Below are positions 55,660-57,786 of a stretch of 64,000 nt of DNA, piece by piece. The DNA lies in contig CAWHLR010000035.1 of NCBI GenBank assembly GCA_963830235.1, positions 29,838 through 93,837 of the forward strand. Reading direction: 5' to 3'. Position numbers and translations under genes: made by a program. Each line of letters begins with the position of its first letter. Position 1 is the first letter of the stretch. This DNA comes from an uncultured Verrucomicrobiae bacterium (GTDB taxonomy: Bacteria; Verrucomicrobiota; Verrucomicrobiia; Limisphaerales; UBA11358). A model generated the notes under the pieces. It was not told where the DNA came from, did no database searches, and saw nothing but the letters and a program-made list of their open reading frames with translations.

Positions 55660-57786
55660 TTACCCAGCTTTCGCCACCAGCTCGCGCGCCTGCCGGATCA
55701 AATCAAGATCGTCCGCCAGATTGCCGAATCGAAATTTCGGCAAGCCGCTTTGCTCCCGGCCCAGCAGCTCGCCCGGCCCGCGCAATTTCAGGTCCGCCTC
55801 CGCAATGCGAAAACCGTCGTTTGTTTCCTCCAAAACTCTCAGGCGTTCGCCGACCCCGGCGGTTTTCGCGTCGGAAATCAAAATGCAATACGACTCGTGC
55901 GCGCCGCGACCGATGCGCCCGCGCAACTGGTGAAGCTGCGCCAGTCCGAACGCCTCCGCGTTTTCAACCAGCATCACCGTCGCGTTCGGCACGTCCACGC
56001 CCACCTCGATGAGCGACGTGGCGAGCAGCACCTTCACCGCGTTCGCGCGAAACGCCGCCATGACCTCTTCCTTTTCGCGGCCTTTCATCCGTCCGTGCAG
56101 CAGCCCGACGCGAAATGGCGCGAGCAAGGTTTTCAAATTTTCATATTCCTTCGTGACCGCCTTCAAACCTTTCTCGCCGGATTCCTCAACGCGCGGATAA
56201 ACCACGTAAGCCTGCCGGCCGGCGGCGAGCTTTTCGCGGATGAATTCCCAGACCTTGGGCAGTTTGTCGGCGGCGCGGATGAACGTTTTGATCCGGCCCC
56301 GACCGCCGGGCAGTTCGTCAATCACCGAGACATCGAGGTCGCCGTAAAGCGTCAGGCCAAGCGTGCGGGGAATCGGCGTGGCGGTCATTACGAGCAGGTG
56401 CGGATAACGGCCTTTGCGCACGAGTTGTTCGCGCTGGGCCACACCGAACTTGTGCTGCTCGTCAATGATCACCAGGCCGAGATTCGGCAGCTCGAAGCCG
56501 GACGTGAGCAGGGCGTGGGTTCCGATGAACAGTGATGCGTGATGCGTGATGCGTGATGCGTGATGAATGCCGCCGCTCAGTTCAACGTTCGATGTTCGAT
56601 GTTCGATGTTCGATGTTTTTCTGCTTCCCGTTTGCATCTCCACCTTCACCCCCAGCGATTCGAACCAGTTGCTGAAATTTTGGAAATGCTGTTCCGCCAG
56701 AATTTCCGTCGGCGCCATGAGCGCGACGCTGAAGCCGCTTTCCAGCGCCATCAGCGCCGTGCAGGCGGCCACGGCGGTTTTGCCCGACCCGACATCGCCT
56801 TGCAGCAGCCGCCGCATGGGATGCGCACCGCTCATGTCCGCGCGGATTTCGCGGAGCACTTTCGTCTGCGCGCCGGTGAGCTTGAAGCCGAGTTGCGCCA
56901 GAAACGGTTTTATCAAATGGTTGTCGCCGCCGCACAGCAACGCCTGCGCGCGGGACTCGAAATTTTTCCGCCGTTGCTGAATTCGCCGCTGCAATTCGAT
57001 AAATTCATCCAGCGCCAGCCGGCGCCGCGCGATTTCGACATCGGCCAGCTCCTCGGGAAAATGCGTCATGTGAACCGCATTCGCGCGAGTGGGAAAATGC
57101 TGGTAGGGCGCGCAGTCCTCTGCGCGCCGCTTCGTGGTTTCGGACGACGGCGCGCACGGAGTGACGCGCCCTACCTGTTGTGTTGCAGCCGGTTCAACAA
57201 TGTGCCGCTCGAATTCTTCCAGCGTGCGCCAGATCAGCCCACGCAGCCAGCGTTGCGGCAGACCTTCGGTAAGCGGATACACCGGCGCGATGCGGTTGAT
57301 ATGGATGAAACTTTCTTCGCCGCCCTCAATGACCTCGGTTTCGGGGTGGGTCATTACGCGCGGCTTGGTTTCGCTCAATTTGCCATACACGAAAACCTCG
57401 TCGCCCATCGCAAAATATTTTTCCATGAACGGCAGGTTCCACCAGCGGCAATGCAACCGCGCCGAGCCGTCGTCGAGGATGATTTCAAAAACGGACTTGC
57501 TGCCGCCGCGAAAACGCCGCAGGCCGGACGCGACAATCGTGCCGCGCGCCGTGGCGGGCTCGTCTTTCGTGAGTTCGGCGATTTTGCGGAAGTGCCGGCG
57601 GTCCTCGTAACGCCGCGGCCGGTGCAGCAGCAAATCCTCAATGATGCGGACATCGAGCCGCGCGAGCTGCGTCGCGCGCTCCGCGCCAACGCCCCAGAGC
57701 GAACTCACGGGCATTTTGAGCGGAGAAATTTTATTTTCCGGCGGCGACATTGCCCGCACGATACAAACCGGCGCGGGCCGCTTCAA
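55660..57786 (-). CDS. recG: ATP-dependent DNA helicase RecG
   Basis: DVGSGKTAVA, IIDEQHKFG, GRGAHESYC and 708 aa. It contains two repeat-encoded inserts. Confidence 0.9.
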   Translation of the reverse strand: MKRPAPVCIVRAMSPPENKISPLKMPVSSLWGVGAERATQLARLDVRIIEDLLLHRPRRYEDRRHFRKIAELTKDEPATARGTIVASGLRRFRGGSKSVFEIILDDGSARLHCRWWNLPFMEKYFAMGDEVFVYGKLSETKPRVMTHPETEVIEGGEESFIHINRIAPVYPLTEGLPQRWLRGLIWRTLEEFERHIVEPAATQQVGRVTPCAPSSETTKRRAEDCAPYQHFPTRANAVHMTHFPEELADVEIARRRLALDEFIELQRRIQQRRKNFESRAQALLCGGDNHLIKPFLAQLGFKLTGAQTKVLREIRADMSGAHPMRRLLQGDVGSGKTAVAACTALMALESGFSVALMAPTEILAEQHFQNFSNWFESLGVKVEMQTGSRKTSNIEHRTSNVELSGGIHHASRITHHASLFIGTHALLTSGFELPNLGLVIIDEQHKFGVAQREQLVRKGRYPHLLVMTATPIPRTLGLTLYGDLDVSVIDELPGGRGRIKTFIRAADKLPKVWEFIREKLAAGRQAYVVYPRVEESGEKGLKAVTKEYENLKTLLAPFRVGLLHGRMKGREKEEVMAAFRANAVKVLLATSLIEVGVDVPNATVMLVENAEAFGLAQLHQLRGRIGRGAHESYCILISDAKTAGVGERLRVLEETNDGFRIAEADLKLRGPGELLGREQSGLPKFRFGNLADDLDLIRQARELVAKAG
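56532..56614. repeat. two heptanucleotide tandem tracts inside recG (GTGATGC x4 and GTTCGAT x4)
   Basis: The tracts are at 56532-56559 and 56587-56614. They are translated as HHASRIT and TSNIEHR repeats. Confidence 0.85.

Follow-up and report, generated by a model that had tools for sequence, protein, structure and literature searches.

Why should the gene for RecG, a conserved DNA-repair helicase, carry two perfect tandem arrays of a seven-nucleotide unit in the middle of its reading frame? The question is raised by a stretch of 64,000 nucleotides from an uncultured Verrucomicrobiae bacterium (contig CAWHLR010000035.1, positions 29,838 to 93,837; hereafter, the window), in which recG lies on the minus strand. 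The original prediction, made from the DNA letters alone, took the arrays for a phase-variable contingency locus and named, as an alternative, a lineage-specific repeat tolerated in a surface loop. We favor the alternative, and we assign a probability of roughly 75% to the proposal that the recG arrays form a cassette of passenger or selfish repeat DNA, kept under purifying selection for frame, and are not a programmed ON/OFF switch.

Tandem Repeats Finder (TRF) places GTGATGC × 4.9 at positions 56532 to 56565 and GTTCGAT × 4.4 at positions 56587 to 56617, both 100% perfect and separated by a spacer of 21 nucleotides (nt) at positions 56566 to 56586. Read in the sense of recG, on the minus strand, the left arm of the cassette is (AACATCG)4.4 and the right arm is (ATCACGC)4.9. 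These are the units first predicted, and the fourfold arrays given at the time were slightly short at their 3′ ends. The perfect lag-7 runs of 24 to 27 bases in these arrays are far above chance expectation. Translation of the region gives ...QTGSRK-TSNIEHRTSN-VELSGGI-HHASRITHHAS-LFIGTHAL, in which the left arm is read as (K)TSNIEHRTSN, the spacer as VELSGGI and the right arm as HHASRITHHAS; the arrays code for about 10 and about 11 residues, and the 14-residue peptides initially ascribed to each were too long. The complete loop-coding segment, from TGSRK to LFIGTHA, occupies positions 56533 to 56616 and specifies 28 residues. In both the +1 and the +2 frames, a TGA is met inside the spacer.

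Is the gene that contains these arrays intact? The recG gene runs from 55660 to 57714, for a protein of 684 amino acids from the start on record, and its open reading frame (ORF) extends to 57786 if counted from the earliest TTG (708 codons). The prediction that both arrays lie within the recG ORF holds, and the gene is of full length. Its product, for which an exact match is on record (P0001), has the Pfam matches RecG_wedge, DEAD, Helicase_C and RecG_dom3_C, with all motifs intact, and aligns over residues 27–704 with the RecG of T. maritima (PDB 1GM5; E = 7e-137). An AlphaFold2 model built on 62 orthologs has a mean predicted local distance difference test (pLDDT) score of 79.8, and its top Foldseek match is the same structure, 1gm5_A.

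In this model, residues 362–394 form a coil between two strands, and pLDDT falls below 50 at residues 371–391. The loop segment, 11 residues longer than its counterpart in 1GM5, lies between motif Ia (PTEILA) and motif Ib (GTHAL), where it takes the place of a short helix. The modeled structure thus supports the placement of the cassette in helicase domain 1 of RecG, in a surface loop that is disordered. The tolerated lineage-specific repeat, which had been offered as the second reading, agrees with the AlphaFold2 model, with the 1GM5 alignment and with the ortholog comparison presented below. The same prediction held that this segment of RecG is normally short and conserved; the excess over 1GM5 fits the first half of that statement, and the range of 13 to 61 residues found in the clade makes the segment hypervariable. 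The residues ELSGGIH were considered as a conserved RecG "SG" helix, and this was rejected, the site being without conservation among orthologs.

The units found in recG belong to a family that extends over the genome. The window comes from a genome of 2.74 Mb (G000; 37 contigs, 57.6% G+C, 63% complete) of the Limisphaerales/Pedosphaera group, an uncultured lineage of peat and soil, in which TRF finds 455 period-7 arrays. At a TRF score of at least 50, there are 120 arrays of period 7, against 4–7 for each of the periods 6, 8, 9 and 10. The units form a few dozen families, such as AAACGTG, AAATCGT, AATCCGC, AACATCG and ACGCATC, and the same units are present in genomes of the same genus. Arrays mostly have 3–5 copies, clean arrays never exceed 39 nt, and the lengths of intragenic arrays peak at 31 nt. 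Near-perfect translated arrays are present in about 50 long ORFs, which are unrelated to one another and include housekeeping genes, and certain peptides (HHASRIT, SAIRNPQ, SEIRNPK and NIQHPTS) recur among them; the ATCACGC unit and the HHASRIT peptide of the recG right arm are found in at least eight other long ORFs of this genome. Perfect arrays are not rarer in long ORFs, which contain 53 of 76, than expected for random positions (65%). Close pairs of arrays number 59, with gaps mostly of 5–36 nt, and 31 of these pairs are inverted within one mismatch per unit. As many as 28 of the 31 inverted pairs are intergenic, and the pairs in long ORFs are non-complementary in 10 of 13 cases.

Heptamer arms also occur in intergenic DNA of the window itself. 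An inverted pair, GATTTAC...CGTAAAT, lies at positions 32475 to 32550, and a second pair, GTGAAAC/GTGATGC...ACGTTTT, which pairs with the use of G-U, lies at positions 37261 to 37350. The latter contains the GTGATGC unit of recG; this intergenic occurrence had been pointed out before, and units are indeed present in the tract from 37279 to 37317. Between the stop of the upstream gene and the start of recG (57800 to 57925), a 22-nt perfect inverted repeat (57800 to 57821 and 57904 to 57925) encloses imperfect heptamer arms of the TTCGAYA type (57826 to 57848) and the TCGTAAA type (57867 to 57897).

Some relatives of the recG cassette contain a gene. Inverted heptamer arrays of 3–5 units flank each of the five PF05635 genes of the genome, with a different unit family in every case (C8:39943-40415, C13:52849-53285, C3:48310-48752, C24:64359-64952 and C26:43332-43862). 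PF05635 is the "23S rRNA IVS protein" (intervening sequence) family, an Avd-like four-helix bundle. The C26 cassette uses AACATCG...CGATGTT, and its left arm, at G000:C26:43332-43362, has the unit of the recG left arm. The recG cassette thus shares with the PF05635 cassettes the AACATCG unit, arms of 4–5 units and the left/right orientation. It differs from them in that no ORF is present between its arms, which are separated only by the 21-nt spacer, and in that its arms are non-complementary.

How do other species treat this site? Among orthologs from different species, the stretch from TGSRK to LFIGTHA ranges from 13 to 61 residues and is in frame in 80 of 80. Exact period-7 runs of at least 17 nt are present in the loop of 31 of 79 orthologs, 11 of which have two runs; with all orthologs pooled, only 4 such runs occur elsewhere in recG. 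Most members of the genus have a cassette at this site, copies at the site range from 2.4 to 5.0 between species, and more distant orthologs have plain loops of 13–20 residues. The units found in the loop include AACATCC/ATCACGC, GTCGAGA/TCGACCC, GGATGGA/CCATCCT, GTGACAA/GTCACCC, GTCCAAA and TTCAACC, and many of the pairs are inverted. The unit family of the left arm recurs at the recG site in L002, L004, L008, L009, L011 and L031. Fixed, identical inserts across the lineage, an observation that would have spoken against phase variation according to the original prediction, were not seen; the inserts vary greatly between species and are always in frame. The difference of L009 and L050 from L002 is exactly RITHHAS, that is, 21 nt or three units. 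Such a frame-neutral step of three units would account for the peak of intragenic arrays near 4.4 copies if three units are added to a single seed unit.

The same frame conservation is found in metagenome sequences. The metagenome RecG fragments examined that span the loop are all in frame, and neither the orthologs nor the metagenome fragments examined include an allele in which a repeat unit has shifted the frame. Split recG genes do exist, on the long-read contigs L094 and L095 and on L097; in these, the break lies upstream of the cassette or in a run of A within the spacer and is not due to a repeat unit. RecG fragments that start at LFIGTHAL or MEDGK were considered as OFF alleles and rejected, since they are due to contig ends (P0008, which is L096, and P0111) or to unrelated indels.

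The cassettes do not follow the gene that harbors them. On a RecG tree made without the loop columns, in which 28 tips were typed, the sister of the window (L003, which is G011) has a different cassette, and the pair AACATCN + ATCACGC is shared by the window, L002, L004 and the distant L008. Cassette type requires 17 changes on this tree, where 7 would be the lowest possible number and shuffled labels require 15–21, with a mean of 18.2. A clade uniting the four carriers of this pair is rejected by the approximately unbiased (AU) topology test (p = 3e-13). Cassette type is thus nearly uncoupled from the RecG tree, and its turnover is faster than that of the gene. At a closer range, three metagenome RecG sequences (P0005, P0006 and P0007), which match the window at about 95% identity downstream of the loop, have three other cassettes, all of them in frame. 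The units at the site also resemble those of the rest of the genome, a comparison among kin genomes that describes a pattern and is not a test: the window genome has 19 matches to ATCACGC arrays and 2 to CCATCCT, and the carriers of the CCATCCT cassette (G011, G017, G010, G008 and G001) have 5–14 CCATCCT matches, four of the five being without ATCACGC matches. A recent recombination tract around the loop was considered and rejected, since sliding-window identity around it revealed no extended tract common to other carriers of the same cassette. A donor of the whole cassette within the same genome was likewise rejected, as the 21-nt spacer has a single occurrence in the assembled genome, which is 63% complete.

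We propose the following explanation. The two recG arrays are the arms, each of about 31 nt, of a short cassette with a spacer of about 20–30 nt, and the repeat family to which it belongs pervades the Limisphaerales/Pedosphaera-like lineage. In the long form of the cassette, inverted arms surround a small PF05635 gene; in the short intergenic form, the arms make hairpins; and in recG, the cassette is translated as a filler peptide in the loop between motifs Ia and Ib. A heptamer array gives the same 7-residue periodic peptide in all three reading frames, and because of this property, it can live in an ORF provided that its sense unit is stop-free. Steps of three units (21 nt) preserve the frame, arms are swapped or rewritten at the recG site, with units that mirror each genome's own repertoire, and selection for a working RecG would purge every out-of-frame state. 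The loop peptide would itself be neutral, and turnover would proceed by slippage of three units together with replacement through recombination or conversion.

Several points weigh against this explanation. The neutrality of the loop peptide is an assumption, and simple slippage does not account for the sharp ceiling of about five copies, which holds also in non-coding DNA. The typing of cassettes was done by eye, and the group submitted to the AU test was picked after the tree was seen. Stable copy numbers are supported by a single independent contig with nearly the same cassette, L081, whose spacer and copy numbers (4.9 and 4.4) match those of the window. L081 is indel-rich, 85–89% identical in its flanks and of poor quality, and it was found by way of the spacer, which biases it to similarity; when metagenomes were scanned for the two flanks with a gap of variable length between them, nothing matched, and the spacer-pattern scan gave L081 only. 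The frame evidence covers orthologs, contigs and metagenome fragments, and slippage variants at low frequency may exist within a population. Two proteins from the 90% cluster of the window are also troublesome. P0004, a RecG that matches the window at about 99% identity apart from the loop, has its cassette in another reading frame, and the sequence of P0003 begins at MFIGTHAL. The two share a +1 shift in motif VI, and by analogy with L094 and L095, we think that their frame differences probably reflect long-read indel noise. The left arm of P0004 consists of one AACATCG followed by three AACATCC, a spread of one substitution across adjacent units, as expected of strain-level conversion or homogenization by slippage.

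It is tempting to go one step further and suppose that an active process, templated by sequence and perhaps tied to the PF05635/Avd-like genes that the same arms bracket, writes and rewrites the cassettes, laying down arms of a fixed length of about 31 nt and returning repeatedly to the same sites. Such a process would explain the copy ceiling, the uncoupling of cassette types from the tree and the units that mirror the repertoire of each genome. We regard this extension as unlikely; if it is true, the recG loop is one of the sites at which a new kind of mobile or self-renewing repeat system, compatible with translation, lands again and again.

Could the variety of the loop instead be what selection favors? 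In such a case, cassette swaps would change a surface epitope of RecG, for instance to evade a RecG inhibitor encoded by a phage or plasmid, and the arrays would be a means of generating in-frame variety. The near lack of correlation between cassette type and gene tree, the four cassettes among alleles about 95% identical downstream, the occupation of the site in most of the genus and the surface exposure of the loop in the AlphaFold2 model are what one would expect. However, since the same cassettes turn up in many other, unrelated proteins and between genes, RecG is not alone in showing such variety; moreover, distant orthologs manage with plain loops of 13–20 residues, and no RecG inhibitor is known here. 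We consider a selected loop improbable.

The phase-variable contingency locus, with which this inquiry began, proposes that slipped-strand mispairing adds or removes one 7-nt unit and so switches the capacity for recombination repair in a reversible and heritable manner. Its premise is correct, in that the unit length is not a multiple of three and a change of one unit shifts the frame toward a TGA of the spacer, whichever the alternative frame. The perfection of both arrays, the different copy numbers between species and the frame differences hinted at by P0003 and P0004 in near-identical strains also favor it. Nevertheless, the arrays of recG have only 4–5 units, against 13–53 in the known heptamer switches; the range is 3–53 for neuO, which is out of frame in 66% of genomes, and 13–38 for hmw (PMC13001214, PMC2651432). 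None of the 80 orthologs is out of frame, no frameshift by a repeat unit was seen in the metagenome fragments examined, the copy numbers in L081 are identical, the same arrays are present in about 50 unrelated genes, housekeeping genes among them, and the broken recG genes examined were broken elsewhere or by homopolymer errors. These observations make a switch at this locus quite improbable.

A further alternative is that the arrays act at the level of DNA or messenger RNA, as a hairpin, a protein-binding site, an RNase III site or a pause site that regulates recG, their translation being incidental. It is in favor of this proposal that most intergenic pairs have complementary arms, as do several recG orthologs (L003, L012, L017, L024, L028 and L065), and that arm length is held tightly at about 31 nt across the genome. 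The window cassette itself argues otherwise. Its arms depart from perfect complementarity at 5 of 7 positions, its RNA fold has a z-score of −0.2 against shuffled sequences, on which ground a hairpin in this cassette was rejected, and the ORF pairs of the genome are likewise mostly non-complementary. The recG cassette cannot form a hairpin because it is a chimera of a left arm of the AACATCG family and a right arm of the GTGATGC/ATCACGC family. A hairpin function in the window cassette is therefore unlikely, and a hairpin may exist in the orthologs with complementary arms; as a general account of the recG arrays, a nucleic-acid-level element is very unlikely. Finally, an assembly or sequencing artefact, with arrays mis-assembled and absent from the real recG, is hardly credible, since the same architecture is seen in dozens of independent metagenome-assembled genomes and Joint Genome Institute (JGI) contigs and the L081 cassette is identical, even if metagenome contigs often break at the recG cassette.

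The heptamer cassette is not the only repeat insertion in this RecG. An inverted doublet resembling repetitive extragenic palindromic (REP) sequences, GGTAGGGCGCG(T/C)...CGCGCCCTACC, with arms of 28 nt, was located by an inverted-repeat search at positions 57102 to 57175 of the minus strand, in frame within recG. It is translated as ...GRVTPCAPSSETTKRRAEDCAPY..., about 25 residues, in the linker between the wedge and the helicase domain, and about 40 copies of its core motif, often paired as doublets, are scattered over the genome. Residues 182–203 of the AlphaFold2 model, with pLDDT below 50, correspond to this insertion and are the sole other long stretch of low confidence. RecG ORFs of 464–470 amino acids that start with M(T/I)HFPEEL, directly after the REP-bearing variable linker, pile up among the RecG fragments matched, and these starts may be due to contig breaks or to gene calling at the REP site. 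Further short in-frame insertions are present in P0009, P0012, P0014 (beside motif VI), P0040 and P0088 (before motif I). They include PPSPRSFGATG..., PPSPGSSGAAG and GQPSPRGFGSAG, adjoin conserved helicase motifs and look like yet another translated repeat element. Elsewhere in the genome, a 1225-codon ORF (G000 C1:9893-13567) has three or four translated arrays (AGTCCAC, CTCCATC, CTCAACC and ATCCCGC). Judged by the peptide between these arrays, the ORF may be Mfd-like; if it is Mfd, both members of its helicase family in the genome have been colonized by arrays.

What known elements does the recG cassette resemble? The closest kinds are the heptanucleotide families of long simple sequence repeats (LSSRs) and short tandemly repeated repetitive (STRR) sequences, together with in-frame insertions of Rickettsia palindromic elements (RPE) or REP sequences. 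Heptamer repeats of the LSSR and STRR kinds were reportedly described by Mrazek in 2007 and Mazel in 1990. The heptanucleotide LSSRs of prokaryotic genomes and the STRR sequences of cyanobacteria are reviewed in PMC4679880. Like these, the present arrays are few-copy tandems of 7 nt at hundreds of loci, with period 7 dominant and units specific to the lineage. Unlike them, the arrays are paired, have a fixed length of about 31 nt, are often inverted and flank PF05635 genes; and while STRR and TAACTGA repeats are mainly intergenic, perfect arrays here are as common in ORFs as at random positions, and they are translated. A literature search for heptamer repeats in Verrucomicrobia found only general or distant work.

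The palindromic elements of Rickettsia and the REP/REPIN sequences are known as in-frame insertions in protein-coding genes. The likeness to the recG cassette is that of a dispersed short element in frame in a tolerant surface region, where it adds a peptide, and recG also holds a REP-like doublet. The cassette differs in having two arms of tandem heptamers in place of a unique palindrome; these arms may come from different families, and at a fixed site they are exchanged. The phase-variable tracts of neuO in E. coli K1, (AAGACTC)n, and of hmw1A/hmw2A in H. influenzae likewise have a 7-nt unit in or beside a gene, a change of one unit alters frame or expression, and the neuO tract is translated. 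Those tracts, however, vary between strains and within cultures, whereas recG is a housekeeping gene with 4–5 units and without an out-of-frame ortholog among 80. What sets the recG case apart from the closest kinds is the combination of paired arms of fixed length, the link to the PF05635 cassettes and swapping at a fixed site.

For Verrucomicrobia and other lineages that have such families, the implication is that perfect 7-nt repeats in genes should not be taken by default for contingency loci. The constant length of the arms, together with their association with PF05635 genes, points to a mechanism of repeat generation not yet described, on which no paper turned up in the library that was searched. 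A conserved DNA-repair helicase tolerates two different in-frame repeat elements, and in one loop of RecG, the cassette is exchanged faster than the gene diverges and yet was never caught out of frame. Heptamer arrays are unusually well suited to coding DNA, since the peptide is the same in all three frames. Thus, repeat families can shape the surfaces of proteins.

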